Source of the DNA: a virus
DNA length: 64,000 bases
IMG/VR virus record: IMGVR_UViG_3300037010_001749
Span: 1 to 64,000 of that record
Strand: one strand, 5' to 3'
Shown here: positions 40,244-57,200 of the stretch, one piece after another
Numbering within the stretch: the stretch's first letter is position 1
Layout: the number at the start of each line of letters is the position of its first letter
The notes under the pieces: generated by a model
Databases searched by the model: none
Seen by the model: only the letters and a program-made list of their open reading frames with translations
Told to the model about the DNA's origin: nothing
Translations under genes and position numbers: made by a program

Positions 40244-40622
40244 TGGATGCCTCCGTCAAGGTGTCGCAGAGGCTGTCCAGCATGGAGACGAGGCCGTCCA
40301 CTATGGGTTGGCGCATGCCCTTCTCGATCGCCTGCTTGGCCAGGTCGCGGGCAGATCCCAGCACGTCACTGGCCGCCTCGAGGCAGCCCAGGATCTCCTG
40401 CAGCCGGTCGTAGGTGTAGGCGCCCGGCGTGGTGTCCGCCATGGCCTCAGCGTCGTCGGCGATTGAAGAAAGGTCGACCTCGGCATCGCCGATCCGGTCA
40501 TGGAGGTCCACGCAAAAGGACTTGTCCATCTCGTTGGTAAACGTGGCCTGCAGCAAGCTGCTCATGGCCCCACACTCAGTTTCGACAGCTAGGATCTGGC
40601 CGCGGATGTCTTCGATGCTCAT
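40236..40622 (-). CDS. Acidic helical hypothetical protein
   Basis: AAGGA RBS; overlaps the downstream gene. Confidence 0.55.
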   Translation of the reverse strand: MSIEDIRGQILAVETECGAMSSLLQATFTNEMDKSFCVDLHDRIGDAEVDLSSIADDAEAMADTTPGAYTYDRLQEILGCLEAASDVLGSARDLAKQAIEKGMRQPIVDGLVSMLDSLCDTLTEASNA

Positions 40623-40631
40623 GTAGATCCT

Positions 40632-40808
40632 TCAGTGAGCGTCGCCGCGTTCTTCGCGGCGAAGCAATTCCTTAACCTTGAGGAGGGAGTAGAGCCTGCG
40701 CCCTGGGTTGGACAGGACCAGGCTCGGTGCCAGACATCGTCTGGCCACCAGGCTCCGCAGAATCTCTGCGGGCTTGCCGACACGCTCCGCAATGTCGGCC
40801 AGGGTCAT
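40632..40808 (-). CDS. Small HTH protein
   Basis: MTLADIAERVG....L..L.....P........LYS. Confidence 0.4.
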   Translation of the reverse strand: MTLADIAERVGKPAEILRSLVARRCLAPSLVLSNPGRRLYSLLKVKELLRREERGDAH

Positions 40809-41731
40809 CTTCGGACCCGCGTCAACGCTTGCGGGTCTTGCTTTTGGGAGGTGGGTCACGGCGCAGCGTTTGCATGGCTTCGTATGCCCAGTCCGTGAAC
40901 CATTGGAGGTTCCATTCCTGGGCCTGCTGAAAAGTCTGGTCGTCATCGAAGACCACTTCGAAGCCCGAGACGCTCTCGAACCATTGGCACCAGGCAACCT
41001 GATCTTCTGCCAATTCTGGGTAGACCGCTTTGTAGTCGATCATGGTGCCTCCTGGCTATTGGGGTTTTCCCTGGGCCACTGCGGAAACGAGGCCACGAGC
41101 GTGCGCTCCACGCGGTAGACCTCGATCGGGCCATCGGCCTGGTATTGCATCAAGTAGCGGCCCATCTCGGCCATGGCCTCAGGCATCGTCGGGGCTTCAA
41201 CCGCAGCAACAAGCTCCCCGTTGCAGTGCATCTCTGCTTCGTATCCCATCAGTGCACCTTCTCCACAGTCCAGCCGCCAAAGCGTTGGTCTTCTTTCACC
41301 ACGATCGGCATATCCTTGTATCGAGCGTAGGCCAGGATCACCCACAAGGTTCCGCCGGTGGCACTGAGGTAGTAGCCGTCTTTCTCGAACTGCCTGGCCA
41401 GCTTCTTCGCTGTGGCCCGGCGTAGCGGGATGGGCCGGCCCATCGTCGGCCACTCTGGCCGGGGTTCGATCACGTGGCGCCCGTCGCCCTCGACGACGTA
41501 GGCAGCATCACTTGTCTTCGAACAGCTTCTCGACATGGGTCAAATTACTCCACCGATTTTCGTCAGGCTGCCATTGCAAGCAAGAGCAGCTGAACCCGTT
41601 GAGATGCTCACGCATGACCCAGCGAAAGCCGTCGCCTGTATCCTGGTATACCGTGCGCAGGACGCGCCCAATGCTCACGGGAGCCGGAGTGCCTTCAGGC
41701 ATGCCTGGGTTCTCCAAATTCACTTCCATGC

Positions 41732-42481
41732 CTACTCCTTAGCCCTAGAGAAAAGCCTGGGCGCCGCAAACTTGCGCGCCTTCCGCCCGTGGACTGTGAT
41801 GACCACTGAGGCCCTATTGCTTCGGCCGTCGGCCGTGCCGTTGCATGCACCGCACGCGATGCACGTGAGGCGCTTGCCCGCCTCTTCGCTGGCCGGGCAG
41901 ACCATCTCACGCACTCCGGCCCCAGCCTTGGGCGTGCGCACACGGAAGTAACGCAGCCCCAGAGTCTGGGCCAGCGTAGCTTCAGCATCGCTGTCGACGC
42001 TGGCCATGCAGAGTTCGGTGACACCTTGCCACTGCTCCAGGGGCAAGTCTCTGTTCTGCCACTGGTGCGTGTAGCCTGTGTGGCCTGCGGCCTTGGACAC
42101 CAGGGCCTGCCAGACCCTGGCAGGCACAGCCATCGGGTCCCCATAGGAGCCCAGGCGGACCATTCGGCCCTCACCCAGCACCGAGGGGTCTTCGTGCAGA
42201 GGGTAGCCGCCGCGGCGCCACTTCTTGTAGACCACGGCAGGCCCACGGTCTACCAGCACATAGCAGGCACCGCCGCGGCTGGGGCGCCAGGCACACTCTC
42301 CGCACACAGAGACATCTGCGCCCGAGGCTACAGCCTCAGCCGGGTGCATGTCCTGGCGCAGGATGTATGTCTGCACCATGTTGCCTGTCTTCACGTTGGC
42401 GCTCGCCTTCAGGGCAATGGCCATGATGGGCGCCGCGTCAAGCAGCGACGCCCCTTGCCAGATGACGTGGCCCGTCGTCAT
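41732..42481 (-). CDS. Cys-rich putative metal/Fe-S protein (GP88-like)
   Basis: N.KTG, CGEC.......CY, R....GD, YTH, ASV and CPA.......C..C..C motifs. Confidence 0.45.
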   Translation of the reverse strand: MTTGHVIWQGASLLDAAPIMAIALKASANVKTGNMVQTYILRQDMHPAEAVASGADVSVCGECAWRPSRGGACYVLVDRGPAVVYKKWRRGGYPLHEDPSVLGEGRMVRLGSYGDPMAVPARVWQALVSKAAGHTGYTHQWQNRDLPLEQWQGVTELCMASVDSDAEATLAQTLGLRYFRVRTPKAGAGVREMVCPASEEAGKRLTCIACGACNGTADGRSNRASVVITVHGRKARKFAAPRLFSRAKE

Positions 42482-44610
42482 GTGGGTTCGTCGGCGAGCC
42501 AGCTTCGCGGCACGCAGTAGCATGCAACCATACCGCCTATAGTCGGCATCTCTTCGCCTTCCAAGTAGAAACCCCCATCGAGGTCAGCCGCCCCGGGCAC
42601 GTAGGGACTGCAGGCCCTGTTGGCATGACCGGCTGGCCCGGCGAACACCCACAGCAGCGGCGCACCACCCAACCAGTCAATCCGATAGTTGACGCCGTCA
42701 TAGACGCCTTCGATGATCGGCTCGCTGATATCGATGTTGTCTCGCCGGCGCTCGACGTGTTCCTCGACAAAGGCATCCTTGTCCGGCTCCTGATTCTTGA
42801 ACCCGAACCAGTTTTGCTGGAAGATCTCGGAGTCGAAGCCCACCTCTCGGTCAGCGCCGCTCTCAGCGGCGCTAATGCAGCACTCCTCCGTCAAGGCTTC
42901 GTATTCGCCCTCGGCCTCGGCCACCAGTTCAGTGACGGCCGCCTCGTAGCTGACGTCCTTGGCGTGCTGGCCATAGAACAGGTCATCCAGGCACCAGGGC
43001 TGTAACGAGTTGAAAGAGATCACGCCGTAGGCGAGACCAGTGGTGGGGTTGTAGTCGGGCATCGTTGCTCCTTAGGGCTAGGTACGCTCACACCTCAAGC
43101 CACCACGCGGCCCGAGGCTGAGAAGAAATATGTCAAGCAAAACTTGTCATCTTCGAGCCGCGCAACCGCCGGATGTGCAGCCACTCGCCGTCTGTGAGAC
43201 TGCGTAGCTTCACAGCGTCACCCGCTCAGCCAGCGCCTGGCTGATCTCACCATTCCGGGACAAGCTGTCGACGTAGTCCGAGAAGGCGCAGCGTGTGTCG
43301 GTCACGTGCATGGTGCCGTTGCCGCTGTAGTCGGGGGTCTTTTTGCGCTCCGCGTCGGGGTGCGCTTCCCAAAAGGCAGCGCGAACCTCACGCTGCGCGG
43401 TGTAGGTAGGCTTCACAGCGGGTAGCCCACCCGCTTCACGACCTTGCAGTTCACCACCTCGACCGTGTCTCCGACACGGATGACACCCTCCCGCCGGCTC
43501 ATACCAGGTTCAAGGTAGTGACCCACCAACTGTTGCAAGCCAGGTAGGCGTCGTAATCCTGGTAGAGATCCTTGGTGCCTTCGTAGTGGCTCACGCGGAG
43601 CCGGTACAGCTGCCGCTCCGCGTGGAGGTTTGCGTTACCGTGGTCCACCAGCACAGCCGCGACGCACTCGCTGTTGTTCTTGATGACGATGACCTGTGTA
43701 GCTGCGTTGGGGCTCATGCTTCGAACCCCGCCTGGAAGCCGAAGTAGGCGATGTCCACGTGGCCACGGCTGCAGAAGACCATGTCGAAGTCGCAGGGATT
43801 GACGAGGCCTTCGATGTACCCCTGCGCCTTCCGGTCTTCGCGCCAGGCTTTGGCCACTTCAGCCCGCGCCTTCTTCAGTGCAGCCAAGGCCTCGGTGTAG
43901 TTGTCGCCAGCCGGCACAGACACCAGTGCCACATGGAAGGGCCAGGCGTGCACCCAGTCGGGCGGGAACCTGTAGTGGAGCACCACCGTCCAGGGCTTGC
44001 TGGCCCTCACGACAGCGTCTCCGACTTAGCCTCTTCACCCAGGGCGCGCAACGTGGTGGCCAGCAAGGTACTGGCACGGATCGGGCTCATGCCCGAGGCG
44101 ATGAGCAGGCGCTTCGCGTCCTGCATGGCCTGCAGCCCCTGTAGATTGGTCTGGCGCACGGCACTGCTGAAGGTGCGGATGATTTCGTGTTCGATATCGT
44201 TCAAACGTCTTCCTTAGGGTTGGGGAAAGGCTTGCGCTCCAAGGGGAACGAGGCTAGTCGGATCTGGCCCATGCCCTTGCGAATGTAAATATGCTGGCGG
44301 TGATCAAAACGAAAGGCCAGCATGTCACTGGCCAGGTTGGCCTTCAGGATCGCCAAGTCTTCGGTGTGATAGAACGCCCATCGGGCGGCCTTGATGGCGC
44401 GGCCAAGGTCGCGCCAGGTCTAGCGCAGCGGGGTCACCCCACCACCGCCATGTCGCGCTCGCAAGTATTGAACTCCAGCCCGTGCTCCACGGCTAGGTCT
44501 TCGGCCTTCTGCAGAGCATCCTGCTCCGACTCGGCTTCGATTTCCACCATCGTGGCGTACGTCTCCGTGACGGCCACTTTGTACATTTTGGTCATGCTAT
44601 TGTCTCTAGA

Positions 44611-44628
44611 TTAGCTCGAACGTTATGC
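44611..44628 (+). repeat. attC right half-site (left border of array)
   Basis: TTAGCTCGAACGTTATGC is identical to the end of attC 46862-46931; no left arm upstream. Confidence 0.8.
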
Positions 44629-44744
44629 GCCTGTCTCGGAATGGGTGAGCTTCACCGCATGCCAAGTGCCTAAAACCTCGTCTGCCGCCGTCAGCCAGTC
44701 TTGCGGCAGCGGGTGCGCTTCAGCAGGGCCAGCGCAGCGGCACC

Positions 44745-45458
44745 CTACTCCACCGGGTTCACTGCGCTTCGCGCAATCTCAATGAGCAAGTCTCGGAACT
44801 CAGGCGGTGTACCGTTGCGGATCGCAGTCTTATCCTTGCCGCCCACCATCGCCATCATTCCAATGCGCCGCGCTTTCGCGTATCCGGGCAACTCCACGGC
44901 GCGCGGGTGTAGCCGCTGCGGTGTCTTGCCCCAGCGCAGTTCGGGCAGCAGGCGCTTTTGCACGCCAGCCACAAGCAGCCATGTTCCTTTGCCGGCAAGG
45001 TGCCCGTAGTGGCCTTGGTACACGCAGCACGTCCACAAGCCTGGCGCGGCCTCAACCCACCCACCTTTGCGCGGCGGCTTCTTCAGCCTGAAGTACGCCC
45101 ACGCATGCGAGTCCATCGGGTGTTCAAGCACGCCACCGTTCAGACGCAGCGCCGCCAGTGCGGTAGCAAAACACCCATCGTCGGCGCCCAGCTTGTACTG
45201 GTGCGGCTTGCGCGTGCTGCCGTGCCAGAACCTGCCCCAGCGCTGGCAGGGCAGGTGCGCCACTACCGGGTGCGGGCCTGCATAGGTACGGGCATCGCGG
45301 GCTTGGTCCCACGGGTCAACGCCCGGCACGCCTACATAGCAGCCCTTCGGCTCAACGTAGAGGGCCGCCACCGTACGGAAGCTCTCCACCTGGCGCATAA
45401 CCCCTCGCACAAGCTGAGAGCCAACGGCGGGTGTAATGGGTGCTTCAGGTTTGGTCAT
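44745..45458 (-). CDS. Cassette 1: divergent DNA cytosine methyltransferase-like protein
   Basis: VAAL.V, DAR.Y, VAH(L)PC, VLEHP and C-terminal TP..F...L; ATG lies inside the attC loop. Confidence 0.5.
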   Translation of the reverse strand: MTKPEAPITPAVGSQLVRGVMRQVESFRTVAALYVEPKGCYVGVPGVDPWDQARDARTYAGPHPVVAHLPCQRWGRFWHGSTRKPHQYKLGADDGCFATALAALRLNGGVLEHPMDSHAWAYFRLKKPPRKGGWVEAAPGLWTCCVYQGHYGHLAGKGTWLLVAGVQKRLLPELRWGKTPQRLHPRAVELPGYAKARRIGMMAMVGGKDKTAIRNGTPPEFRDLLIEIARSAVNPVE

Positions 45459-45491
45459 GCCGTTGGTTCCAGCTTTGCTTGGTCATTAGGC
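45395..45491 (+). repeat. attC site, 97 bp, R' degenerate (ATTAGGC)
   Basis: GCATAAC...; near-identical to 47467-47563. Confidence 0.82.
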
Positions 45492-45679
45492 GGCTTGCGC
45501 AACTCGAACATCACAACCCGCCGCAGACCCAGGCGCCGCAGGTAGTCGGCGCTCGGGTTCACCTTCTCGCCATCACGCAGCCGCGACAGGTAGCCGCAGT
45601 CAATCTCGGTCACGCGGGCCACGGCGCGCAGGCTGCCGTGCTGCGAGACGAGTTGGTCAATGCGCTCTGCCAGCGTCAT
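45455..45679 (-). CDS. Cassette 2: XRE/Cro-like HTH protein
   Basis: SLRAVARVTEIDCGYLSRLRDG...NPS...LRRLGL; ATGA-coupled at both ends. Confidence 0.75.
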   Translation of the reverse strand: MTLAERIDQLVSQHGSLRAVARVTEIDCGYLSRLRDGEKVNPSADYLRRLGLRRVVMFELRKPPNDQAKLEPTA

Positions 45680-46020
45680 GACTGATACCCGGCCAGCGCG
45701 TTGGCTAGCGCGGCATCCGCTTCGCCGAGAAAATCGTCCGGCACAATGAACGACACCCACGCGGGAGCGTTCGGCGTTGCTGGATGCCTCGCGTATTGCA
45801 AGAGCGTCGCAAGCAGCACGGCACAGCGCTTCGGCGCAGCCCGCACCAGCACTGCAAACCGCTCCAGGTGCTCCTGCGTCACGCCGTGGCAGCCTTCGCT
45901 GTACACGCACGAACCGCTGCCGTGGTTCAGCACGTTCACCATTCCAGCAGCCTCCACCAGCGGGCCTAACCCCTCTGTCGAGCCGAGTGCCAACGGCTGG
46001 CTGGTTTTGGTAGTGTTCAT
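45676..46020 (-). CDS. Cassette 2: hypothetical protein
   Basis: AAGGAG RBS and ATG inside attC 45964-46068. Confidence 0.65.
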   Translation of the reverse strand: MNTTKTSQPLALGSTEGLGPLVEAAGMVNVLNHGSGSCVYSEGCHGVTQEHLERFAVLVRAAPKRCAVLLATLLQYARHPATPNAPAWVSFIVPDDFLGEADAALANALAGYQS

Positions 46021-46068
46021 CGTTGCTTCTCCTTGGCCGTTGTCACCGGCTCAACTCCAACGTTAGGC
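45964..46068 (+). repeat. attC site, 105 bp
   Basis: GCCTAAC...GTTAGGC; near-identical to 48750-48854. Confidence 0.9.
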
Positions 46069-46069
46069 C

Positions 46070-46444
46070 TCACACCAGCCACGATGCAGCGGCAGCTTGG
46101 CGAGAGGCTGTGTCGCGTGCCTTGATGCCCGCCAACAAGTCGGCGGCCAGCAGCGGGTATTCGGCGGCGCACGATTCTACGTATGCGCGCAGGGCCGCCG
46201 CAGCGTGCTTATCATGCGTCAGGTCCAGCACAAAGTAAACGCAGCCGCAGTGCTTGCCGCCCGGCGCGCTACTGCCGTCCGTTCGCGTCACGTTGAATCT
46301 GCTGTACAGCCCACGATTCCTGTCACAGGGCATTGGCTCGCCGCACAGTTCACACTTGCTCATGCTTTTCCTCGCTCCGGCACCAGGCCGAACCATTCGC
46401 ACAAGCTGCGCCCCAACGGCGGGGCACAGCAACTCGGTAGGCAC
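46070..46444 (-). CDS. Cassette 3: conserved phage hypothetical protein (start may be 46363)
   Basis: GLY..F.V.RTDG......FVLDL..D..A..AL.AY motif. Confidence 0.65.
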   Translation of the reverse strand: MPTELLCPAVGAQLVRMVRPGAGARKSMSKCELCGEPMPCDRNRGLYSRFNVTRTDGSSAPGGKHCGCVYFVLDLTHDKHAAAALRAYVESCAAEYPLLAADLLAGIKARDTASRQAAAASWLV

Positions 46445-46487
46445 CGCCTGCGCGGCCGTTGGTGCCAGCTTTCCTCAATCGTTAGCC
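46387..46487 (+). repeat. attC site, 101 bp
   Basis: GCCGAAC...GTTAGCC with inner CCAACGGC/GCCGTTGG stem. Confidence 0.85.
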
Positions 46488-46500
46488 AGCGCCAAAACCA

Positions 46501-46821
46501 TCACGCCGGCTCGTAGGTGGCTGCGAAGATGTCCGGTTTGCATGGATAGTGCTCGCCGGCCACGCCGCGAATGATCCAGTCGCCTGGGCTAGCGACATGC
46601 TGGCCTTCAAGCGTCGGAACCATGATGTTGTTGTTGTGCCATTGCGCCAGCTCGCGCCCGATGGCGTGCTGTCCCTCGTTGATCCAGAGAATCAGCGCAT
46701 AGCTACTTCCGTCGTTGCGGAACTGGCGTGCTTCAATCACGATAGGTTTCTTCCTGAAGCGCGTTGTCTGTTCGGTTGTTGCCGCGTCCAGCTCATGGCC
46801 GGCGCTGAGAAATGTTTGCAT
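46501..46821 (-). CDS. Cassette 4: conserved phage protein (PGDYG-like)
   Basis: RKKP.VIEA.QF...TLEG...PGDWII.GV.GE.YPCKPDIF..TYE. Confidence 0.7.
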   Translation of the reverse strand: MQTFLSAGHELDAATTEQTTRFRKKPIVIEARQFRNDGSSYALILWINEGQHAIGRELAQWHNNNIMVPTLEGQHVASPGDWIIRGVAGEHYPCKPDIFAATYEPA

Positions 46822-46861
46822 GACGGTTCCTTCTGTGTTGTGCCAGCATGGGTCGGGCGCT

Positions 46862-46931
46862 GGCTAACCCCTCGCTCAAGCGGATTTGCCACGGAGTACC
46901 ATGTCAAACGCGCTTAGCTCGAACGTTATGC
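46862..46931 (+). repeat. attC site, 70 bp
   Basis: GGCTAAC-CCCTC-GCTCAAGC...GCTTAGC-TCGAAC-GTTATGC; extra C in L''. Confidence 0.92.
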
Positions 46932-47530
46932 GCCTTGAGGCACGCCACCATTTGCCGCGCCGACTGTCTCGCGTCCATCAACGGGTGGTGCGCCGGTAGT
47001 TCGTCCGGCAAGCGCTCGGTCAGTTCCAGCGCGTTGCCGCCCAGCGCCAGGATCACGCTTGCCAAGTCGTGCAGCGGGTACGGGCCTTGCCACTCGCGCT
47101 CGGCGTGGTTCAGCTTCACGCACGCGCTCAGAAAGTTGGCTTCCACCGGCCAAGCGCAGTCAGCCACCAGCACCGCGCCCTGGTCGGCCCAGCTTCGCCA
47201 CTCATGCCAAAAGTGGTTCCGCAGGTGCTGCTTCGTTGGGCTTGTCACCGGCAGCGCCGGCACATGCTCGCCCACCCACAGCCGGCTTTCGGCGGTGCCG
47301 GTGCAGTCGGCGGGGTCGCAAGCAATGCAGCCTTCGTCCAGCCGCTCGCCTTCTCGGTTCACCACTACCCAGGCCACTGCAAAGCCCTCGCCATGCAGGC
47401 CAATGCTTTCCACGTCAAACACCATAAATTTGTCCATCACCATCCTCTCGTTTCTCGCTGCAGGCGCCGTAACACCTCGCACAAGCTGAGAGCCAACGGC
47501 GGGTGTAGTGGGTGCTTCAGGTTTGGTCAT
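46904..47530 (-). CDS. Cassette 5: DEDDh 3'-5' exonuclease/exoribonuclease
   Basis: VFDVES.G and H.PL.DA motifs; ORF begins and ends inside attC sites. Confidence 0.75.
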   Translation of the reverse strand: MTKPEAPTTPAVGSQLVRGVTAPAARNERMVMDKFMVFDVESIGLHGEGFAVAWVVVNREGERLDEGCIACDPADCTGTAESRLWVGEHVPALPVTSPTKQHLRNHFWHEWRSWADQGAVLVADCAWPVEANFLSACVKLNHAEREWQGPYPLHDLASVILALGGNALELTERLPDELPAHHPLMDARQSARQMVACLKAHNVRAKRV

Positions 47531-47563
47531 GCCGTTGGCTCCAGCTTTGCTCGATCGTTAGGC
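47467..47563 (+). repeat. attC site, 97 bp
   Basis: CCGTAAC...GTTAGGC; near-identical to 45395-45491. Confidence 0.85.
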
Positions 47564-47863
47564 GCTTACCGCAGGGCCAGCAGGCAGCGGCATCCAGTGC
47601 GTCACACGTCTCACCAGCGCTGGCGGCAGCGGCCAGTTGTGCTGGTCCACCTCCCACCGAGGGCCCTCACCAGTAAGCCGGAACTTCGTGATGTGCGCGT
47701 GTCCAGGAGTCAGCCGGTCAAAGACCCCGCGGCGCCACACCAGCACGGTGGCGTTGTGACTGGGCAAGCGCTCGCCAGTCGGCACCCACGCGCATAACCC
47801 CTCACTGCAACCGAGCCCCAACGGCTGGCCCGTGCTGCTGTCATCGGTAGTTTCAGTGGTCAT
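47558..47863 (-). CDS. Cassette 6: DUF551-like protein
   Basis: W....ERLP.....VLVW...VTHWMPLP; GAGG RBS and ATG in the attC loop; stop inside the R' box. Confidence 0.75.
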   Translation of the reverse strand: MTTETTDDSSTGQPLGLGCSEGLCAWVPTGERLPSHNATVLVWRRGVFDRLTPGHAHITKFRLTGEGPRWEVDQHNWPLPPALVRRVTHWMPLPAGPAVSA

Positions 47864-47911
47864 CGTGTTTCCTCTCGTGCCGTTGTGTCCGGCTCACCTC
47901 GAACGTTAGGG
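47792..47911 (+). repeat. attC site, 120 bp
   Basis: GCATAAC...GTTAGGG. Confidence 0.85.
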
Positions 47912-48079
47912 CGCAGGGCCACGCTTGCGGTTCTCGCGGCGCTGCAACTTCGCTTCCAGCGCCCTGACCTCTGGCACGTACTCCGGGCGCACATGCACTG
48001 TCACCGCAGTGCGCCCGGATTCCTTGTGGCGCTGCCGCTCGTCGGCCTTGCGCTCTGCTGCTGTTTTCGCTGGGCTCAT
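47906..48079 (-). CDS. Cassette 7: 57-aa basic putative DNA-binding protein (not in the ORF track)
   Basis: MSPAKTAAERKADERQRHKESGRTAVTVHVRPEYVPEVRALEAKL...; ATGA-coupled to the upstream ORF; TAA inside the R' box. Confidence 0.6.
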   Translation of the reverse strand: MSPAKTAAERKADERQRHKESGRTAVTVHVRPEYVPEVRALEAKLQRRENRKRGPAP

Positions 48080-48318
48080 GCCAGCGTGGCGCCGGCCGCT
48101 AGGTAGTGCGCCAGCTCGCTGTCCGGGATCGAAACGAACCTGTAGCCCATGCGGTGCGCAGTGGAGCCATCAGGAATGGTCACAACGCTGAACGGCTCAC
48201 CCTTCATTTCGGCAATCTGCTTTGCGTAGGCACGCACTGGCTCGGCCTGCGAGTGGATCGGTTCCACTTGCAGGGCTGCGCGCTGGCGCTTCAGTGTCTT
48301 GGTCATCTCAGCTTGCAT
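48076..48318 (-). CDS. Cassette 7: 80-aa hypothetical protein
   Basis: AAGGAG RBS then ATG (MQAEMTKTL...), downstream of a cassette-internal promoter. Confidence 0.65.
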   Translation of the reverse strand: MQAEMTKTLKRQRAALQVEPIHSQAEPVRAYAKQIAEMKGEPFSVVTIPDGSTAHRMGYRFVSIPDSELAHYLAAGATLA

Positions 48319-48357
48319 CTCTTGCTCCTTCTGCTGCACTGTAGCCGCAGTGGCTAC

Positions 48358-48386
48358 AGTATCGCTCATCGTGACACGTCACGCAA
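48358..48386 (-). promoter_or_regulatory. Sigma70-like promoter with overlapping inverted-repeat operator
   Basis: Minus strand TTGCGT-N17-GATACT; CGTGAC-AC-GTCACG at 48370-48383. Confidence 0.65.
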
Positions 48387-48401
48387 GCATTCTCGCGTGC
48401 G

Positions 48402-48507
48402 CCCTAACCCCTCGTTGCAACCGAGCCCCAACAGGCTGCGGTCAGTTGTGGCCTTTCGGCCTGCTTATGCACGGCCTGTTGGGGCCGGCTGAACTCGAAC
48501 GTTAGGC
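48402..48507 (+). repeat. attC site, 106 bp
   Basis: CCCTAAC...GTTAGGC; core identical to 49114-49219. Confidence 0.92.
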
Positions 48508-48806
48508 CCTTCAATGCCGCGAGCAATCTTGCTGGCGGCATTCCGCGCGTTCACCGTCACGCCGTCAGCGTGCGTCTCGCCCCAGCGGCGGGCAATGGCG
48601 GCGCAGCGTGCGCGCTCGGCGGCCACGGCCTTGTCAATGCGCCACTGCACATGCGCCGGGCTTGACCAATGGCCGCACTCGGCGGGGTCATCGTTTGTGC
48701 CGCAGATTGTCATGGTCAGGTATTGGCCCTCGCGCTGCGGTGGCAGCGGGCCTAACCCCTCTGTCGAGCCGAGTGCCAACGGCTGGCTGGTTTTGGTAGT
48801 GTTCAT
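48465..48806 (-). CDS. Cassette 8: hypothetical protein
   Basis: RBS and ATG in attC 48750-48854, stop in attC 48402-48507; AVAAERARCAAIA motif. Confidence 0.65.
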   Translation of the reverse strand: MNTTKTSQPLALGSTEGLGPLPPQREGQYLTMTICGTNDDPAECGHWSSPAHVQWRIDKAVAAERARCAAIARRWGETHADGVTVNARNAASKIARGIEGPNVRVQPAPTGRA

Positions 48807-48854
48807 CGTTGCTTCTCCTTGGCCGTTGTCACCGGCTCACATCGATCGTTCGGT
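48750..48854 (+). repeat. attC site, 105 bp
   Basis: GCCTAAC...GTTCGGT. Confidence 0.88.
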
Positions 48855-48861
48855 GTGTTGC

Positions 48862-49143
48862 TCACCGCGAGCAACCCAAATGCTTGCCGTCGCTCGTCAT
48901 GCGTGGCGTGAGTCCGCCGGCCGAAGTGCGCAGATACTGGCACCCGGTCAGCGCGTCGGTGCTGGGCACCAAGCCGCTGCGGGCGCCCCACGCGCCGGGG
49001 TCCGTGTCATCGCGCCCAATGGGCAGCAGGCCCACAACCAGCATCATGGCCACGCCAATCAGCAGGTACTTCCCGCACCAGCGGGCGAACATTTTTGCTT
49101 CTATCAACGACACGCCTAACCCCTCGTTGCAACCGAGCCCCAA
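48862..49143 (-). CDS. Cassette 9: small membrane-anchored protein (DUF6440-like); start uncertain
   Basis: Hydrophobic segment, then D..TGCQYL....GGLTPR...DGK. Confidence 0.55.
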   Translation of the reverse strand: MGLGCNEGLGVSLIEAKMFARWCGKYLLIGVAMMLVVGLLPIGRDDTDPGAWGARSGLVPSTDALTGCQYLRTSAGGLTPRMTSDGKHLGCSR

Positions 49144-49219
49144 CAGGCTGCGGTCAGTTGTGGCCTTTCGGCCTGCTTATGCACGGCCTGTTGGGGCCGG
49201 CTGAACTCGAACGTTCGGC
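49114..49219 (+). repeat. attC site, 106 bp
   Basis: GCCTAAC...GTTCGGC. Confidence 0.92.
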
Positions 49220-49220
49220 A

Positions 49221-49523
49221 TCAATACCGGCTTTCGAGTTTCGCCAGCGCCGCTTTGATGATCGACTGCATCACCTCATCGGTCATGTGCTTGGCCATTG
49301 CGTCCTTGATGCCGGTTTCCAGCAGCGGCGCGTAGGTGGCCAGCACTTCCTTTTCGATCAGTTCGCGCACGTACCGCTTGACGACATCATCGAATGGGTT
49401 GTTGTAGCTCTTGGACAGTTCAGCGATGCTGCGCTGAACGGCACCCTTCACTACTTCACCGATCTGGCTGTCCATCACAGTCTTGGCGATGAACTCGTTA
49501 ATTTGCTGCGGGGTCAGTTCCAT
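49221..49523 (-). CDS. Cassette 10: helical hypothetical protein
   Basis: AAGGA RBS; fills the cassette. Confidence 0.7.
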   Translation of the reverse strand: MELTPQQINEFIAKTVMDSQIGEVVKGAVQRSIAELSKSYNNPFDDVVKRYVRELIEKEVLATYAPLLETGIKDAMAKHMTDEVMQSIIKAALAKLESRY

Positions 49524-49546
49524 GTCGTTTCCTTCTGTGCGTTGAT

Positions 49547-49651
49547 GCCGAACTGGCAGTTCAAGCAGAGCCCCAACGGCGGCCTGCTTTTGTGGTTAAA
49601 AACTCCGGCGTCCGTGGCGCCGTTGGTACCTGCTTAACCTAAACGTCAGCC
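49547..49651 (+). repeat. attC site, 105 bp, R' degenerate (GTCAGCC)
   Basis: GCCGAAC-TGGCA-GTTCAAGC...GCTTAAC-CTAAAC-GTCAGCC. Confidence 0.85.
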
Positions 49652-49687
49652 GGCACCAATACCCTCGGTGCCGGCATACTCGTGTTG

Positions 49688-49966
49688 TCAGAACGTGGTG
49701 GGCTGCGCAATGCCGCGAATCAACTTCATGAAGCCCACTTGCAGGTCAGTGGCTCCCATGCTGACCCACCGCTGGTCAAGGTCCAGTGACAGCGGCCTGC
49801 CATCGGCCACAGGCGTATCGGTGCGCGTGATGTCAGGGTGTTGACGCAGTTTCGCCACAAAAGCGCCGCACTGCTCGGCCAGCGCCTTGCCCTCGTTCAT
49901 CAGCGCTACTTCAGCACCGCTCAGTTGACGGTAGCCCGTCACTTTCGGTTGAATCATCGTTTCCAT
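49688..49966 (-). CDS. acb2: Cassette 11: Acb2-family anti-CBASS cyclic-nucleotide sponge
   Basis: 92 aa; K.TGYR.LS..E..LMN..K...RW...G.TD.Q.G.M..IR.IAQP..F matches the Acb2 pattern as I recall it. Confidence 0.85.
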   Translation of the reverse strand: METMIQPKVTGYRQLSGAEVALMNEGKALAEQCGAFVAKLRQHPDITRTDTPVADGRPLSLDLDQRWVSMGATDLQVGFMKLIRGIAQPTTF

Positions 49967-50006
49967 GTGGTTCCTTAAGTTGCATGCCAGCGTTGGTGCG
50001 GGTGCT

Positions 50007-50076
50007 GGCTAACCCATCGCTCAAGCGGATTTGCCACGGAGTACCAAGTCAAACGCGCTTAGCTTGAACGTTCGGT
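50007..50076 (+). repeat. attC site, 70 bp
   Basis: GGCTAAC-CCATC-GCTCAAGC...GCTTAGC-TTGAAC-GTTCGGT; near-identical to 46862-46931. Confidence 0.92.
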
Positions 50077-50310
50077 CCGTTCATTCGCCACCGCCACTGC
50101 ATCAAGCACACCCGGCTTCATCGCCAGTTCCAGCAGGCTGCCCATCATGCGCTTGCCGTGCGCCCGGTTGGCATCCAGTAGATCGATGTACTTCTTGCGA
50201 TACTGGTGAAGTTCTTCGTTTTCCTCGCGCAGCCGCTCTAGTTCGTGATGCATGTCCAGCACGTCGGCGGCCATCTGCACAGCCAGGGGCACTTTGTAGT
50301 CTCGCCTCAT
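50059..50310 (-). CDS. Cassette 12: coiled-coil hypothetical protein
   Basis: GGAG RBS; stop lies in the L' box of the next attC. Confidence 0.65.
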   Translation of the reverse strand: MRRDYKVPLAVQMAADVLDMHHELERLREENEELHQYRKKYIDLLDANRAHGKRMMGSLLELAMKPGVLDAVAVANERTERSS

Positions 50311-50329
50311 CTCGTTTCTCCACCAACGG

Positions 50330-50365
50330 GCCTAACCCGTCGCTCAAGTTGAGAGCCAACGGCGC
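50330..50365 (+). repeat. attC left half-site (right border of array)
   Basis: GCCTAAC-CCGTC-GCTCAAGT..GAGAGCCAACGGC; no right arm, runs into the next phage gene. Confidence 0.8.
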
Positions 50366-50377
50366 CAGCAGGCACCG

Positions 50378-51289
50378 TCATGCCGCCTCCTTAGCCTTGA
50401 GGAGGCCCAGTTGGTGGGCGATACCTTCGATCTCATCGAAGGCGATGTCATGGCAGCCGACCACGATATTGCCGTTGGTGCAGATCTTCGTCAACTCGTA
50501 GTGACCCAAGGTCATGCCTACCTCGTAGTCCTTCTTGCCCTTCATGACGCGCTGGATGACCGGCCAGAGCTTCTTCGCGTCTTCGACGGGGATGCTGGCG
50601 TGGCGGCTGGTCTGGATCATGAACGACGGCAAGTCCAGCCGCAGCATCGTCGGAAGATCCCGGCTGAGCGCTGGGCTCCCACTCCGCCGCCAGGCTGTAA
50701 TGGCGACGGCCTGCAGCCTCCGAAAGGCCTTGGCCTGCGACACTGCGCGGCGTTTCTCCGAGACGGCTTTCTTGGCCAGGTGCTCGCGGTGCTGCTCCGG
50801 GCTCCACGTCGCCGCATCGATCGGCTTGATACGGGCCTTGTGCTTCAGCAGCTTCGCAAACTGGTTGAAGTCGGCGGTGATCTGCGCCGCTTGGCTGAGG
50901 TAGACAGGCCGATTGCCGTCGGCCTTGGCGCGTAGGGCCTTGGCCAGCAGGTTGTCGACGAGGGCCTGAGTGCCTTCCGTGTCCGGCGCGTCGTGCTCCG
51001 GGTTCAGCACGGACACCTGCTTCAGGTGCCTGGTGGCGTGTCGTGCCTCCCAGACGTGCCTGTTTGTCGTGGAAGAATTCTTCTCCAGGTTGATGGCCAC
51101 CCAGCCGCCGGGTAAGTGGCGACCGATGCAGTAGTGCTTGCCGTAGCTGTAGAAGTAGTCGCCTTCGACGAAGGCCTGGATGACGCGGCCGCCGTTCATG
51201 CCGGGACGCTCGGGCATCCGAGCTTCAGCCTGCCGTTTGTGGGCCCAGATGTGGGCCAGTTCTTCCGAGTGGTTGTACACCGTCTTCAT
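50378..51289 (-). CDS. Hypothetical early protein, ~303 aa
   Basis: GAGG RBS; ATGA overlap with the upstream ORF; YSYG.HY and GCH motifs. Confidence 0.7.
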   Translation of the reverse strand: MKTVYNHSEELAHIWAHKRQAEARMPERPGMNGGRVIQAFVEGDYFYSYGKHYCIGRHLPGGWVAINLEKNSSTTNRHVWEARHATRHLKQVSVLNPEHDAPDTEGTQALVDNLLAKALRAKADGNRPVYLSQAAQITADFNQFAKLLKHKARIKPIDAATWSPEQHREHLAKKAVSEKRRAVSQAKAFRRLQAVAITAWRRSGSPALSRDLPTMLRLDLPSFMIQTSRHASIPVEDAKKLWPVIQRVMKGKKDYEVGMTLGHYELTKICTNGNIVVGCHDIAFDEIEGIAHQLGLLKAKEAA

Positions 51290-54200
51290 GCGATGAGTCC
51301 TCGTTGTCTTGCGTACTCGACCAGATGGGGTTGCCACTCAGCTTCGCTGTTGGCTGACCGACTATTGAAGCCGGCGAGGCGTGGAGCGGTCAGGTAACCC
51401 GACTCGATCTCCTCGTTGATGGCCTCGACATCAAGGCTGAAAATCTCGCGCCCCCTCGGGGTGCTGAGGCTGGCGTATCCGTCGCCTCGTTCAAACCACA
51501 CGCTGGCCACGTACTCGTGGTCAGCGATCTTCTTTGCCATGGCGGCTCCTTAGGGCTAGAGAACCCGGCCGATGCGGTCCTGGCCTTTGATCTTGATGGC
51601 CATGTCAGTACAGGTTCTCGCTGTACAGCGTCCCATCGTTGGCATCGTCGCCACCGCAGCGGCGGACGATCTGGCCTGCCGCTTCGGCAACCTTCCAGGC
51701 CACCGTCCGAGACATGAACACACCGTGCTGGTCGATGAAGCCCTGCTCCTCTTTCGGGTCATGCGGAGTGAAGGCCTGCACGAGTCGCCACTGGTCGCGC
51801 ATCACCAGGTCCCAGTGCCGGGCGCCGACCAGCATGTGGTAGTCGCCGATCTTGGTGGCCGCGCAAACGACGCGTCTCATCGCACACCTGACAGGTTCTC
51901 GTACTCTTCGACGCCCATGATGACGCACTCGATGACAGCCAGGCCGTCTCGAAGCCACATCGGGCACTCGCGCTTGGCCTGCTGCCCGTCTTCCTCCGTC
52001 AGGTGGAACTGGTTCGCACCCTTCTCGAAGCCCAGCGGCTTGCCGGCGCGATCCTTCTGCATGGCCACCCACACTTGAGTCGGCGCCGTCACTTCAGCAC
52101 ACCTGCAATCTTGGCGTACTTCTCGAGCAGTTCCGGGAACGCATCTTCGATGCGCCGGATGCTGTCGTCGTCAGCCACGAGGTAGGCCTCGGCCAACTTG
52201 GCGGCGAACCCTCCGCCGTAGGCTCGCATCACCCGGATGATGTCCAGGCGGTCGTTCAGTTCGTAGTGCATGACGCCTCCTTAGCGCTGAGGAGCCAAGG
52301 TATAGAAGCGGACCGCCGCATCGCGGCGCCAGGCATCCAGCAGTTCACCGTCAGCGCCGGGATACTTCTGGACCTTGTCGCCCACCCAGGCCCGCTGCAG
52401 GTTCTCCTTCAGACGTTCCGCCTGAACTGGGTCAGCAAAGCGCGACACCGTGAGCAACTCGTTGGGCGGGTCGCACACGACGGTGTACAGCGTCGGGTGG
52501 TAGAGCGGCGGGATACCCGCCTTCTGCTGATGCCACGTGCTCAAGCTCGATCCTCCTTAGCGTTGAGGGCGTTGGCGATAACCTGGGCCTGCCCCATGCC
52601 GGAGCACTCGCAGACGACCTGGTTTCCGTACCAGTCGTCGCCTGCCTCTCGTGCGTACGGCGGCGGGTCGATGTTCGTGTCCACCACTGAGGCATCAAAG
52701 CAGCAGGCATGGCCGAGGATGCTGCGCTCCACAGCCTTGTACCGCGGCGTCATGTCACCTCCCGCAAGGTGGCCTTGTCGCGCAAGTCAGCACGCCACTG
52801 CTCGGCCCAGCTGGTCAAGTCTGGGATGTGCTCACGGACAAGCTCGCACACCATGTCCGCGAAGTAGCCTGCGGCGCAGCGCTGCCAGAACTCATCGGCG
52901 TTGCCGTAGCAACACGCGCCCAGGCTTTCCTCGCCCAGCATCTCGCCACGGTGCCATAGGCTCACGTCGGCGTTGAACCAGGCGAAGTCCTCGATCTCGC
53001 GGTACTGCTGCGGCGTCCACCCGCACTCCTTCACGAAATGCCGGTGCATGCTGACCGACTCTTCCGGAGGAGCATCGAAGCAAATCATGTAGTCGGTGCC
53101 AGGGATCACAAGCACTGGTTTCATTTCTGCCTTTCAGCGAGGCCAGAGGCTGCGGCGGCTTCCGCATGCTCCAGCGAACCCAGGTAGCTGCGGCCTTCAA
53201 TGGCGCGCAGTTCGGTCAGGCGGTCGCCCAACTCCTTAGCCCTGAGGAATTCGTCCCCGGCCAGCCGGCTGCCCAGCGCCTTCAGGATCAGCAGTGTGTC
53301 GAACTTGTTGAGTTCGAAGATCCAGTTGGGCTTGAGGTGCAGTTGCGGCTTGTCGATTCGTTCACCGTTCATCGGCTATCCCTCATCTTGTCCACGTTGA
53401 AGCGCTTGATCCAGCGCTCGATGATCGTGTCGCACACGCCCAGGCCATCCAGCAGCCCATCGAGGTCTTCCGCACGCAGGCATAGGCTGACGTGCCCGTA
53501 ACTCTCGTGGCTTTCGATACCCCGCTCCGGATCACCCTTGAACGCCTCGTCGAGCATGTCAATCAGCTGAGTGACGTAGTAGCCACCTGGCTGCTGATTG
53601 CGCTCTTCGGCGTCACGCAGCACAAACTCCAGCCGGTGCCCATGCCAGGTCTTGACGTTGAGCCAGCCGTCGACGTGGGTCAGCTCAGCATAGATGTCGT
53701 CGTCGTCGCTCACAGCTTCTCCGCCACCAAGCCAGCGAGCATCGTGCGCATGGCCTGGGTGTAGCCCATCAGGTAGAGATCGCCGTTCTCCTTAGCGTTG
53801 AGTATGATGTTGTCCAGGCCCTGGAACATCGATTCGATGCGGTAGTCATCGACTAGCCGGTTGCGCCGTCGGCGGTCAGGCCGCTCGATCCCTTGATTGT
53901 CGGTGTAGTAGTCCATGTCAGGTCTCCACGATTCGTGCGTCCCAGCCGTAGGCGATACTCTCGCCTCCCTTGGACAGCATGTTGAACATCTGCTTGATGT
54001 CATCGAGCACGTCATTTGGGTCACGCAGCATCTCGCCTTCCTCGGACGGGAGAAGCGTGACCATGATGTGCACGGGCTTCGCCCGCGGCTCGCCATCATC
54101 GGGGCCATCGGCCCCGGCACGCTCGAAAGGCTCGTGGCTGTCGCAGCCGTCGTCGTACTCTTCAGGGAGCATCAGCTTTCCTCGGGTGCAGCGTAGAGCT

Positions 54201-57200
54201 GCTCAACGACAAGGTCCTGGGGCCGGGCCAGCGGCGGTTGGGTGTAACGCCAATGTTGCGACTCATCGGAGTTCTTCCAGAACCAGCGCGTGCCTGCGTA
54301 ATACGTCAAGGGGCTCGCCTGAAAGGCGGCCTGCAGCATTGCTCCATAACCATCTTCTTCAACCGCCTCCATGGCGTCGAGCATCGCTCGTGTCGCCACG
54401 GTGGGCACCAGCTTCCAGTGGGTCACAGGTCCACCTCGCGCCCATCGGGCATGATCAGCGTGGTCTCGGTGCTGATACCGAGCACCGCGTCGAGGATCTT
54501 GAGGCTGTAGCTGGGCAGGGCCGGCGCCACGAGATTTTCGAGCGTCTCGTGCAGGGTTTCCACGTGGTCGTCCTGGTTGGGGTCGAAGTCGTCGGGCACT
54601 TCGACCTCGAACGTCTCGCGCTCCCAGACGGCCTGGTCGCGTTGGATTCGGATCTTCATTCAATGCCTCCAAACAAAGCCGTCTTCGGTGAGGAAGCCGC
54701 CGCCGATGCCACGTTCGGTGTAGGCGCCTTGCAGGGCGTACTCGAGGACGTCAAGCTGGGTGAGTCTCACCGCCCGGCTCCTTCGCGTCCTGGTACATCG
54801 GGCACGACGGCGTCAGGCCGTCACAGTTTTCGCGAATCAGACGCCGACGGACTTCCGCGTAGCCGTCGCTCATGGCGCAATAGCTGTCGCCGTCCTGATC
54901 TGCGTCTCGGTAGGGGCATCGCCCGCACTCGGTCACAAAGAAGCTGAAGCCCTTCACAGCAGCCTCGCTACTTCAAGGCGAAACTGGTCAATCATCCTGG
55001 TAACGTGCCAGGTGATCGGTAGCACGTCATCGACGCGCCACCATGAGCCGGCCCTGATCTTCTTCGGCGTGAAGCCCCAGGCCTCGATGTCCTGCGCCTT
55101 CATCACGAAGGGCAGGGCCGCGTTGAGTTCGGCGGTGCTCACGTAGAGCACACCGTCGATCATTTCAGTCTTCAAAGGACCTCCTTAGGGCTGAGGATCA
55201 GGCAAAGCGCTGGGCGCTCTCTCGGTACCAGACATACTCTTCTTGGGCCCAGATCCAGTCTGGGTAGCCAAGGCACTTGACGGCTTGCCAGATTTCCTCG
55301 CAAGCCCCGGCCTGGCCTTCAGCGTAGGCCTTGACGTATTCGGCGTACACCTCCTCGGGTACGTCCATCACTGCAGTTTCGCCAACTGTTGCTTGCCCAG
55401 CGTAGTCAACCACAGCTTGCCCGCTGAGTCCACCGTGATGTACCTCAGGTCATCGAAGTAGGTGGCCCACAGCCGCGGGCCCACCGGATCGAAATCGTCG
55501 AAGAAGATGACCTTGGTGGCACCGCCACCAGTGTTGTGCACGTACTGCAGCACCTGCTTTTGGAATGTGCTCATCCCGCCTCCTTAGCGTTAGGGAGCCG
55601 CCGGTGCTCCTGCCGGTCGTCTTTCAGCCGCTTCTCGACCCGGTCACCAGTCCCGCCGTTGACGGCGATGTGCACAAGGCCGTCGACCCAGGGCTCGCAG
55701 TAGAAGCTGACCGTGTTGGCCACCAGGATGGCGGCCAGGCGTTGGGCCGTGGCCTCATGCATCTCGAAGATGGCGACCCCATCGGGACCACCCTTGATGA
55801 GCAGGGCCACGTCAGTCCCCCGGCGTGTCGCTGCTGGGCGCGTCGTAGCTGGCGTCGGCACCACCGCCGCCGAAGTCACCACCGCCGCCGGACTCAATTC
55901 CGTCGGTGCCGCCGAAGCCCACGGTCGGACGGCCTGTGCCCTCGGGAATCTCGGGGCTGTCCTGGATCGCATCGACGATCAAGCTGCCCACAGCCATGGC
56001 CTCGGTAGGCAGTGCGCCGACTGCCGGCGGCGCCCAGTGAAGCTCCAGCGCCTCGGGGTAGAAGGTTCTGCCATAGCATTCGGCATAGTGCGTCACGTAA
56101 ACACGGCCCGAACTGCTGGCGTTGTTCGGCGCGCTGGCGTCGTCCAGGCGCCAGACGTCACCCCACTTGTCAGTGATCCGCTGGCCGGCCACAACAGGCT
56201 TGAACCACTTGTCCAGCAGCGTATAAGTGCCGTTGTACCCTTGCTTTTCCATGTCTGACTCTCCTTAGTCCTGGGGAACGTAATTCTTGAAAAAGACCCG
56301 GCCATAGCTCTGACTCGGGACCTCATCGGGAAACGCGCTGCGGCTTCCGCAGCGATCTTGGTTGGGTAGAGCACGTCGCGCAAGTCTTGCACGCGCCAAA
56401 GATCCACGACATCAGGCATCGCCTACGTGGCGCAAGTAATCAGTCACTTGGTTTCCTTTGCCAGTGAGCGGGCCACACGTGCCCGCAGCTTCTCAAACTG
56501 CACCATCTCATCGGTAATCTCGTCGAGCACCTCGTCGTAATAGTTGACATCGGGGCAGGTGGCGATCTGGTTGTGCAATTCCGCGATGGCCAGGCCCAGG
56601 CCCTCGTGGACCATCTTCAGGTTCTTGCCTGTGAAGATCACGGAGCGCACCCCATGATCTGCTTGCGCACCCAGACATCCTGCTCGCGCCGGTCGATCAG
56701 TTCCTTCAGCGCGTCAGCCAGATCCTGGCTGTCCACGTGCTCGAAGTCTCCAGTGGGTAAACGCGCTCCGCGGTTGGCTGACAGGCCCCCCTCGTGGCGC
56801 ATGCGGCGCAGCTTGCTGTGCATCGTGTGCAACTCCTCAAGGCTAAGGTTCAGTACGGTCCCCAGTCGTATGAGTAGGGCACGTCGAACCAGGCCTGCTG
56901 CGGCGACATGCCTGCTTCGAAGCGGCTCTTCCATGCCTGGCGTTCTTCCAGCGGGCCGGACTCCGCGTCATAGTGCGCCAGCTTCTTCTCGGCGGCGATG
57001 CGCTTGAGTTCGGCAAACCACACAGCCTTGTCCCAAGGCAGGCCCACCAGGTGCTTGTGGCGGTTCACCACGTTGAAGTAGATGCCGTCCTCGTCACTGG
57101 CGAAGTAGCCGACGATGCGCTTGCCTTTGTGCTCGGTCACGGCCGGCACGCTGAAGTAGGTGTCAGCGTAGCCGCTGGCGTAGCAGGTGAGTCTCAGCTG

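Follow-up and report, generated by a model that had tools for sequence, protein, structure and literature searches.

Integron-integrases (IntI) join circular gene cassettes at the G/TT crossover point of attC sites, and the open reading frames (ORFs) of cassettes normally lie on the attC top strand. The canonical cassette is a promoterless top-strand ORF that carries its attC site at the 3′-end and is expressed from the cassette promoter Pc. Integrons and 17 attC clusters have already been reported from phage genomes, and IntI1 recombines five of six tested phage attC sites with attI1 (Qi et al., 2023; PMC9892861). The phage clusters of attC sites lacking integron-integrases (CALINs) in that survey consist of attC sites and cassettes in tailed phages, including virulent ones, with no intI gene, and the array described here is similar in these respects. 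It occupies positions 44587–50365 of the analysed window, which is the first 64 kb (positions 1–64,000) of the 85,895-bp IMG/VR record IMGVR_UViG_3300037010_001749, and comprises 11 full attC sites and two half-sites on the + strand that enclose 12 cassettes (Table 1), against a stated minimum of two sites per cluster in the survey of Qi et al. (2023). Departing from the canonical orientation, its genes all run antisense to the top strand of attC, a polarity that the main text of Qi et al. (2023) does not mention, and start codons lie within about half of its sites. The initial annotation, which was made from the sequence alone, left the novelty of such an array undecided; attC clusters in phages were already in print, while the reversed polarity, start codons within attC and a separate phage cargo pool were not found in the literature searched, in which the supplements of Qi et al. 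(2023) and Loot et al. (2017) may list relevant ORF orientations.

Among bacterial systems, the sedentary chromosomal integrons of Burkholderiales and the class 1 integron of plasmid R100 share with this array the attC sequence-structure family and the G/TT cassette architecture. They also have the same attC polarity relative to intI as the intI-bearing viral records described below. Unlike in these integrons, neither intI nor attI was found here, in a linear-class record that is 71% complete by CheckV, and the genes are on the bottom strand. The attC sites stand 5′ of the genes, unlike in bacterial integrons, and often start their translation, and the cargo is of phage type rather than of the GNAT, glyoxalase and cupin type.

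All of the full sites, both half-sites and the 12 units that they bound lie where the initial annotation had placed them. Across the entire 85,895-bp record, a profile built from the 11 full sites hits 13 places at E ≤ 1, every one of them within the array (44586–50364) and on the + strand. It is very probable that the locus is an integron-type cassette array without an integrase, that is, a CALIN, situated in the leftward-transcribed early region of the phage. With the same high confidence, we regard it as genuinely of the integron type, recombined by IntI either now or formerly.

The assignment of the sites to the attC class draws on both sequence and structure. The polarity of attC is set by its second inverted pair, L″/L′, in which L″ has one extra base. 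A script recovered the geometry AAC-N5-8mer...7mer-N6-GTT, in which the first 8-mer has its extra base at position four, in nine of the 11 full sites, the two missed being those at 45964 and 47792; the script is too permissive genome-wide (many chance sites), and only its rows within the array are used. AAC is kept in all 12 R″ boxes and GTT in 10 of the 12 R′ boxes, the exceptions being ATT at 45485 and GTC at 49645. When R100 was read directly, intI1 and aadA1 were divergent and the attC site on the aadA1 sense strand had the form R″(..AAC)-N5-8mer...7mer-N6-GTT; the canonical + strand geometry with the extra base in L″, as proposed in the initial annotation, is thus seen in nine sites and in the aadA1 attC of R100 alike. 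A covariance model built solely from the 11 window sites gives them 44–102 bits on the + strand and no more than 26 bits on the − strand. Searched without filters against 14 kb of R100, the model ranked the full-length aadA1 attC first, with 43.5 bits (E 2.9e-12) for the sense strand of aadA1 and 12.8 bits for the opposite strand. Compensatory changes are present in 10 of the 19 consensus pairs of the attC alignment, and bottom-strand DNA folds better than shuffled sequence (z ≤ −1.96) in eight sites, so that the folding check suggested at the outset was favourable for these eight and unfavourable for the remaining three. The window has no match in Rfam at gathering thresholds, and no curated RNA or DNA family accounts for the repeats. 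A window-wide search for the motif YTAAC-N10-RRS gave 16 occurrences against 12.4 expected, that is, no enrichment. Because of the covariance cross-hit to the aadA1 attC, the R100 geometry and the presence of the same family beside bacterial IntI, the window sites are attC-class sites and the + strand is their canonical top strand.

One site-derived motif retrieved at least 120 stretches from a bacterial genome collection, and among the matches listed these were overwhelmingly from Burkholderiales (Rubrivivax, Aquabacterium, Hydrogenophaga, Acidovorax, Rhodoferax and Leptothrix). Profile hits were found in 118 of the 120 bacterial stretches listed, numbering at least 356 and reaching 15 per 8 kb. 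A looser motif retrieved 102 stretches from IMG/VR, 39 of which had profile hits, with up to six sites in one orientation; the viral status of these other contigs is that of the IMG/VR classification, save for three annotated here. The nearest neighbours of viral attC sites were viral in 42 cases and bacterial in 19, though 279 of the 352 compared sites were bacterial, and those of the sites in this phage were viral in eight cases and bacterial in three.

In this phage, all called genes of the array lie on the bottom (−) strand, with attC at their 5′-end. Their G+C content at third codon positions (GC3) is 0.72–0.83, and PHROG matches were obtained for seven of the 14 − strand array ORFs and for none of the 10 longest + strand ORFs. 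High-GC3 genes from approximately 18 to 64.7 kb of the record are all on the − strand. By GC3, PHROG matches and the strand of the backbone genes, the bottom-strand placement of the cassette ORFs and their co-orientation with the phage early genes, both noted initially, are upheld, the latter for the replication genes. When gene strand was scored for each inter-attC interval with a GC3-weighted ORF heuristic, the bacterial arrays listed gave 169 top, 21 bottom and 43 ambiguous intervals, the IMG/VR arrays 1, 36 and 9, and this phage 0, 7 and 5, respectively; Fisher's p for the difference in polarity is 7.5e-26, a value in which independence is overstated by near-duplicate loci. The first 100 of the 184 bacterial top-strand ORFs yielded 58 Pfam families of integron-cargo type (among them GNAT, glyoxalase, cupin and DUF1801) and one Shedu, while the 55 viral bottom-strand ORFs yielded 11 families, including two DNA methylases, DUF551, a helix-turn-helix (HTH) family and ASCH. 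The ORF calls are meaningful because the bacterial top-strand and the viral bottom-strand ORFs match fitting families. The inversion of genes relative to attC is real and systematic. In the bacterial loci L160–L279, a bottom-strand gene occurs in 21 of the 233 scored intervals.

If cassettes are circles joined at G/TT, the attC sites at their junctions are hybrids, and the first bases of a cassette (TTRRRY..) should pair with its own R″ box. Over positions 4–14, the two ends of the same cassette matched at 88 of 132 positions, whereas permuted pairings gave a mean of 58.9 (sd 5.7) and one permutation in 100,000 reached 88. Outside the 7-bp core, at positions 8–14, there were 48 matches in 84, a figure reached by none of 100,000 permutations. 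Across the same positions, the R″ and R′ boxes within one attC matched at 21 of 77, which is the background level. The complementary runs reported initially at 44622/45392, 46481/46856, 47905/48398 and 49213/49542 were recovered exactly, with 10, 13, 11 and 12 contiguous matches, and the R″/R′ mismatch within single sites was likewise reproduced outside the core. This end-pairing test is independent of assembly order across the duplicated attC centres. Read on the + strand, a unit opens with the TT of an R′ box, continues with one or two − strand genes and closes with R″-L″-loop-L′-G.

Homologous cassettes occur singly elsewhere. Cassette 5 and the attC on its + side (a6) have a counterpart in viral contig L052, enclosed by two attC sites, with 86% identity over 657 nt and 89% amino acid identity of the encoded protein. 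Cassette 9 and its attC (a10) are 81% identical over 404 nt to viral contig L127, in which the protein homologue (88% amino acid identity) also lies between two attC sites. In both contigs, the similarity begins and ends at R′ boxes and the neighbouring cassettes are unrelated, which by comparison of the sequences identifies the cassette as the unit that moves. Homologues of the cassette 1 protein with 66% amino acid identity are found beside attC sites in L050, L143, L046, L055 and L144, some of which are near-duplicate loci. This cassette-level comparison was used for the test of gene order because close relatives suitable for synteny were not found. Megablast of 40000–55000 against GenBank phages gave no match, a 319-amino-acid (aa) flanking protein had no relatives in IMG/VR, and a 263-aa flanking protein had 44, all at 48% identity or less and with no attC profile hits at their loci. 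A wastewater run of 2025 (X5) contains high-depth contigs that are 90–95% similar to single cassettes 1, 5, 9 and 11 (window 44619–45096, 46994–47416, 48847–49126 and 49863–49972) and not to the phage backbone, and loose ends start directly after the R″ AAC at 45970 and 48408. This run shares only 5% of words, and no conclusion on habitat is drawn from it.

A translation start within attC was scored where a bottom-strand Shine–Dalgarno (SD) sequence and ATG in the site begin an ORF that is 60 codons or longer and crosses R″ into the cassette. Bottom-strand starts of this kind are present in five of the 11 sites in this phage and in 29 of 58 distinct viral sites, but in only three of 236 bacterial sites; on the top strand, none was found in this phage, none in the viral sites and three in the bacterial sites. 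The first 20 residues encoded by the genes of cassettes 2 and 8 are identical, because both starts come from the same attC type. Between 44000 and 51500, a scan limited to the sigma-70-type consensus found no promoter (1.3 expected), and nine terminators were found against 6.9 expected (sd 2.6), which is no excess. As neither a sigma-70-type promoter nor an excess of terminators was found, the cassette genes are probably transcribed by read-through from phage promoters.

No match to TIGR02249 or PF00589 was found anywhere in the 85,895-bp record, which at 71% completeness leaves absence from the full genome unproven. The initial annotation had proposed either a borrowed host IntI or a recombinase encoded outside the window; the remainder of the record encodes none, and as no tyrosine recombinase is present anywhere in it, supply in trans is the remaining option and is inferred here. 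At a curated IntI cut-off of 265 bits, all five bacterial genomes tested that carry the same attC family encode IntI (443–468 bits). Three of five tested viral records with this family, namely L158 (G018:16000–31436), L159 (G021:20000–39245) and L157 (G004:26000–40506), encode IntI beside their arrays (395–435 bits), with 50–57% identity to bacterial IntIs and to IntI1. All three have the R100 arrangement, with intI transcription directed away from the array and an attC top strand leading away from intI, but their cassette genes point toward intI. A tail fibre gene and a gene for a primase/helicase are present in one of these records. Another is Mu-like and encodes MuA, MuB and Gam upstream; its intI follows these genes and the cassettes on one strand, as though belonging to the early operon. 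The IntI of G004 is short of approximately 13 residues that are present in the other two viral IntIs.

The cargo of the array appears, from family matches, to consist of phage-type accessory genes, predicted counter-defence genes among them. Pfam adds DUF551 and Acb2/Tad1 to the families matched in PHROG; among the 14 array ORFs, eight are without any Pfam match and two more have sub-threshold matches only. Together with the methylase, DUF551 and HTH families of the viral arrays, these matches agree with the phage derivation that the initial annotation had attributed to the cargo. By homology, cassette 11 encodes a full-length member of the Acb2/Tad1 family, with a full-length match (E 3.6e-9) to the protein named ‘p26’ in PDB 8h2j/8ixz. 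We take the latter to be Acb2, a cyclic-nucleotide sponge that acts against the cyclic-oligonucleotide-based anti-phage signalling system (CBASS). The cassette 1 protein belongs to a viral family, its atlas neighbours being viral clusters, and a DNA-methylase function is a weak lead. Searches of solved structures with the cassette 1 and 4 products gave no relative. For the product of cassette 5, which has no Pfam or PHROG hit, atlas neighbours including Rv2179c-like exonuclease clusters provide a lead toward a putative DEDD-type exonuclease. Cassettes 2 and 7 are two-gene units, each ending in a small basic protein; the genes of cassette 2 have no Pfam or PHROG hit, while the 57-aa protein of cassette 7 weakly matches phrog_536, a transcriptional regulator (E 6e-4). 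The DpnD/PcfM-like gene immediately outside the array has the appearance of a onetime cassette from which the R″-L″ half has been lost.

Table 1. Sites and genes of the cassette array, in order of window position. Covariance model scores are for the + strand unless stated; fold z refers to bottom-strand DNA; n.s., not significant.
Feature	Position	Strand	Details
DpnD/PcfM-like gene	44434–44595	−	53 aa; ATG inside terminal half-site; just outside array
Half-site	44587–44628	+	L′-R′ side only; R′ 44622–44628; low-coordinate array end; profile hit 44586–44632, model positions 66–112, E 3.1e-4; 70–82% identity to right halves of sites at 45450 and 47522 (repeat family D4)
Cassette 1 gene	44745–45458	−	217–237 aa; possible starts 45398 and 45458 (inside a2); phrog_12600, E 1e-60
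attC a2	45395–45491	+	95 bits, 24.5 bits on − strand; L″/L′ 7/7, one extra base; fold z −2.13
Cassette 2, two genes	45455–46020	−	45676–46020 (114 aa, start inside a3) and 45455–45679 (74 aa); ATGA overlap
attC a3	45964–46068	+	96.8 bits; fold z −4.09, R boxes paired, one base bulged; − strand AAGGAG-N7-ATG, start 46020; 95% identity to a9 over 110 nt (repeat family D5)
Cassette 3 gene	46070–46363	−	97 aa; phrog_9572, E 2.2e-20
attC a4	46387–46487	+	80 bits; fold z −1.96
Cassette 4 gene	46501–46821	−	106 aa; phrog_419, E 1.2e-29
attC a5	46862–46931	+	Short 70-nt type; 48.3 bits; L″/L′ 7/7; fold z −1.49, n.s.
Cassette 5 gene	46904–47530	−	179 aa from 47443; in-frame ATG at 47530 inside a6 gives 208 aa
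attC a6	47467–47563	+	97.5 bits; accompanies cassette 5 in other phage contig (L052)
Cassette 6 gene	47558–47863	−	101 aa; DUF551, PF04448, E 9.7e-8; start inside a7
attC a7	47792–47911	+	Most degenerate site; 76.5 bits; fold z +0.25; L″/L′ missed by script; − strand SD and ATG, start 47863
Cassette 7, two genes	47906–48369	−	48076–48369 (97 aa, or 80 aa from 48318) and 47906–48079 (57 aa, basic)
attC a8	48402–48507	+	100.2 bits; fold z −4.47; 99% identity to a10 over 105 nt (repeat family D7)
Cassette 8 gene	48465–48806	−	113 aa from ATG inside a9, or 82 aa from 48713; no family hit
attC a9	48750–48854	+	98 bits; fold z −2.62; − strand AAGGAG-N7-ATG, start 48806
Cassette 9 gene	48862–49092	−	76 aa, hydrophobic N-terminus; phrog_14094, E 4.2e-12
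attC a10	49114–49219	+	101.8 bits; accompanies cassette 9 in other phage contig (L127)
Cassette 10 gene	49221–49523	−	100 aa; SD AGAAGGAAAC; GC3 0.75; no significant family hit
attC a11	49547–49651	+	79.6 bits; fold z −2.56
Cassette 11 gene	49688–49966	−	92 aa; Pfam Acb2/Tad1 family PF24729, E 2.7e-12
attC a12	50007–50076	+	Short type; 44 bits; fold z −1.04, n.s.; 92% identity to a5 (repeat family D10)
Cassette 12 gene	50059–50310	−	83 aa; SD present; GC3 0.71; no family hit
Half-site	50330–50365	+	R″-L″ side only; high-coordinate array end; abuts stop of backbone gene 50378–51337; profile hit 50327–50364, model positions 3–40, E 1.5e-6; 17.3 bits

The record encodes a tape measure protein, a minor tail protein, a PolA-type DNA polymerase, a primase, a helicase and an SbcCD-like nuclease, and the source phage is a large siphophage. 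Its likely hosts, as judged from sequence, are Burkholderiales. The array does not differ in G+C content (0.61–0.63) from the phage mean (0.62). Across the array, the + strand GC skew is negative; this is given no weight, because phage skew also tracks transcription, though it is compatible with the bottom strand being the lagging-strand template. At 18305–21443 of the window (−), an SbcC-like protein (701 aa) and an adjoining phosphoesterase (346 aa) resemble a palindrome- or hairpin-specific nuclease, a noteworthy pair in a genome with 11 long hairpin-forming sites. A second repeat family, distinct from the attC sites, is the dyad CCTTAG-NN-YTRRGG, of which 20 + strand copies extend from window 37265 to 63930 and on to position 67128 of the record, at − strand gene junctions and overlapping stop codons and SD sequences.

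The soundness of the assembly was assessed by matching contigs; the runs compared are contigs, and uncovered stretches in X3, X4 and X5 carry no meaning. Pieces across the array recur with zero or one difference in contigs of three runs, one from a microbial mat (X1, possibly the source sample) and two from sediments sampled in other studies; one 620-nt piece over cassette 5 has nine differences. In X1, one contig crosses from backbone to array at each end. With near-identical pieces in the runs of other studies and both backbone–array junctions spanned, the array is not a one-sample chimera, a possibility that the initial annotation had listed as a potential refutation. Cassette order across the three duplicated attC pairs is less certain because contigs break there, and joints between attC boxes with 18–31 nt sides were not counted as evidence of excision. 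Contigs in X1, X3 and X4 join 43281 to 51906, with two other letters between them and no repeat seen at the ends, and may represent a co-occurring variant from which the whole 8.6 kb with the array and its immediate surroundings is missing.

Several points weigh against reading these features as the product of continuing cassette exchange by IntI. Recombination is deduced from sequence footprints. No integrase is present in the 85.9 kb of a record that is only 71% complete. Identical pieces in three studies give no sign of ongoing rearrangement, and the three near-identical attC pairs (90–99%) could also be substrates for homologous recombination. Two R′ boxes are degenerate (ATT and GTC) and three of the 11 bottom strands fold no better than shuffles (z −1.49, +0.25 and −1.04), because of which part of the array may be inert. 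The heuristic behind the polarity counts, based on ORFs and GC3, is crude, and near-duplicate loci are among those counted; the attC family and G+C content are the sole basis of the host assignment. As a separate observation, the R′ boxes at 45485 (a2, ATT) and 49645 (a11, GTC) lack the conserved GTT, and cassettes 1/2 and 10/11 may be locked together.

Much of this would be expected of a relic, an array that IntI put together in an ancestral genome, perhaps that of a temperate phage with intI, and that is now fixed, with its hairpins serving only as intergenic or translation-initiation elements. The missing integrase, the degenerate R′ boxes with the three weakly folding sites, and the identical pieces in the runs of three studies all fit such a history. 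The own-end footprints are nevertheless still sharp, at 10 to 13 matches per run, cassettes are shared with unrelated viral contigs at 81–86% nucleotide identity in different neighbourhoods, and IntI is present in all five tested hosts of this attC family; a relic is considered unlikely.

The repeats could alternatively be regulatory stem-loops resembling promoter early stem-loops (PeSLs), shuffled by homologous recombination and with an attC likeness that is ancestral or incidental. The PeSL cassettes of T4-type phages likewise have stem-loops between small accessory genes in hyperplastic regions for which shuffling has been proposed (PMC2839356, PMC4122927), and shuffling by PeSLs has been published. 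The near-identical repeat pairs of 79–110 nt and the SD sequences and ATG codons embedded in the elements are in keeping with this. PeSLs are promoter/terminator motifs, an early promoter consensus joined to a terminator stem-loop, and are proposed to act by homologous recombination, whereas the elements here are of the attC class and show a site-specific crossover footprint, with no sigma-70-type promoter consensus and no terminator excess found in 44000–51500. Homologous exchange inside repeats would not make cassette ends pair across a hybrid site, and the same attC family stands beside bacterial IntI; such an origin is very improbable.

That the array is a stretch of bacterial chromosomal integron gained by illegitimate recombination, or a phage/host assembly chimera, is hardly credible: chromosomal-integron fragments have been reported from Vibrio phages (Qi et al., 2023; PMC9892861) and the attC family is bacterial, but gene polarity is opposite to that of bacterial arrays, the cargo is of phage type, 18 queried proteins (15 from cassette and half-site genes and three flanking) had no match in 126 bacterial loci (a small sample and weak evidence for separate pools), the G+C content of the array equals the phage mean, X1 contigs run from backbone into array at both ends, and identical pieces occur in other studies.

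A further, more novel reading is that the array belongs to a cassette pool that is the mirror image of the bacterial one. We put at about even the chance that Burkholderiales phages, both virulent and temperate, keep such a pool of their own, in which genes are antisense to attC, the hairpin acts as a translation-initiation module, exchange takes place among unrelated phages during infection through host or prophage IntI, the recombinogenic strand is exposed while the phage genome is transcribed and replicated, and phage counter-defence and bacterial defence cassettes are mutually unexpressed. Phage read-through transcription would express the cassette genes, with the attC hairpin thus placed 5′ of each gene, and about half of the attC sites would supply the SD sequence, the ATG and approximately 20 N-terminal codons. 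The bottom strands, here also the sense strands of the genes, would be bound in folded form by IntI acting in trans, and attC × attC recombination at G/TT would exchange cassettes. The enzyme could be supplied by a host chromosomal integron or by a co-resident intI-carrying prophage, and prophages would place intI at the end of the early operon. Such activity in trans would move cassettes between phage arrays.

A position on the lagging-strand template promotes the folding of attC bottom strands and excision, as shown by Loot et al. (2017; PMC5371416). With the polarity reversed, the recombinogenic bottom strand would be the non-template strand of transcription and, if replication runs with transcription, also the lagging-strand template, and both positions should favour folding. 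Cassettes that cross from one pool to the other would be antisense to the local transcription, which starts from Pc in a bacterial integron and is that of the phage in a phage array. The two pools would in this way be functionally separate while sharing one recombinase.

Integrons have recently been recast in the literature as bacterial stores of anti-phage defence cassettes. The present array suggests that this cassette format, probably together with its enzyme, is also used by phages, with the polarity flipped and with accessory and counter-defence cargo such as Acb2 and orphan methylases. If this is true, it would provide a site-specific mechanism for the fast turnover of small early genes in the hyperplastic regions of phage genomes. 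A gene preceded by a bottom-strand attC would then serve as a sequence rule for finding candidate anti-defence genes in viromes, and the phage arrays would offer a test bed for the control of attC recombination by strand exposure. A DNA recombination hairpin would, moreover, have been co-opted as a ribosome-binding and N-terminal coding module.

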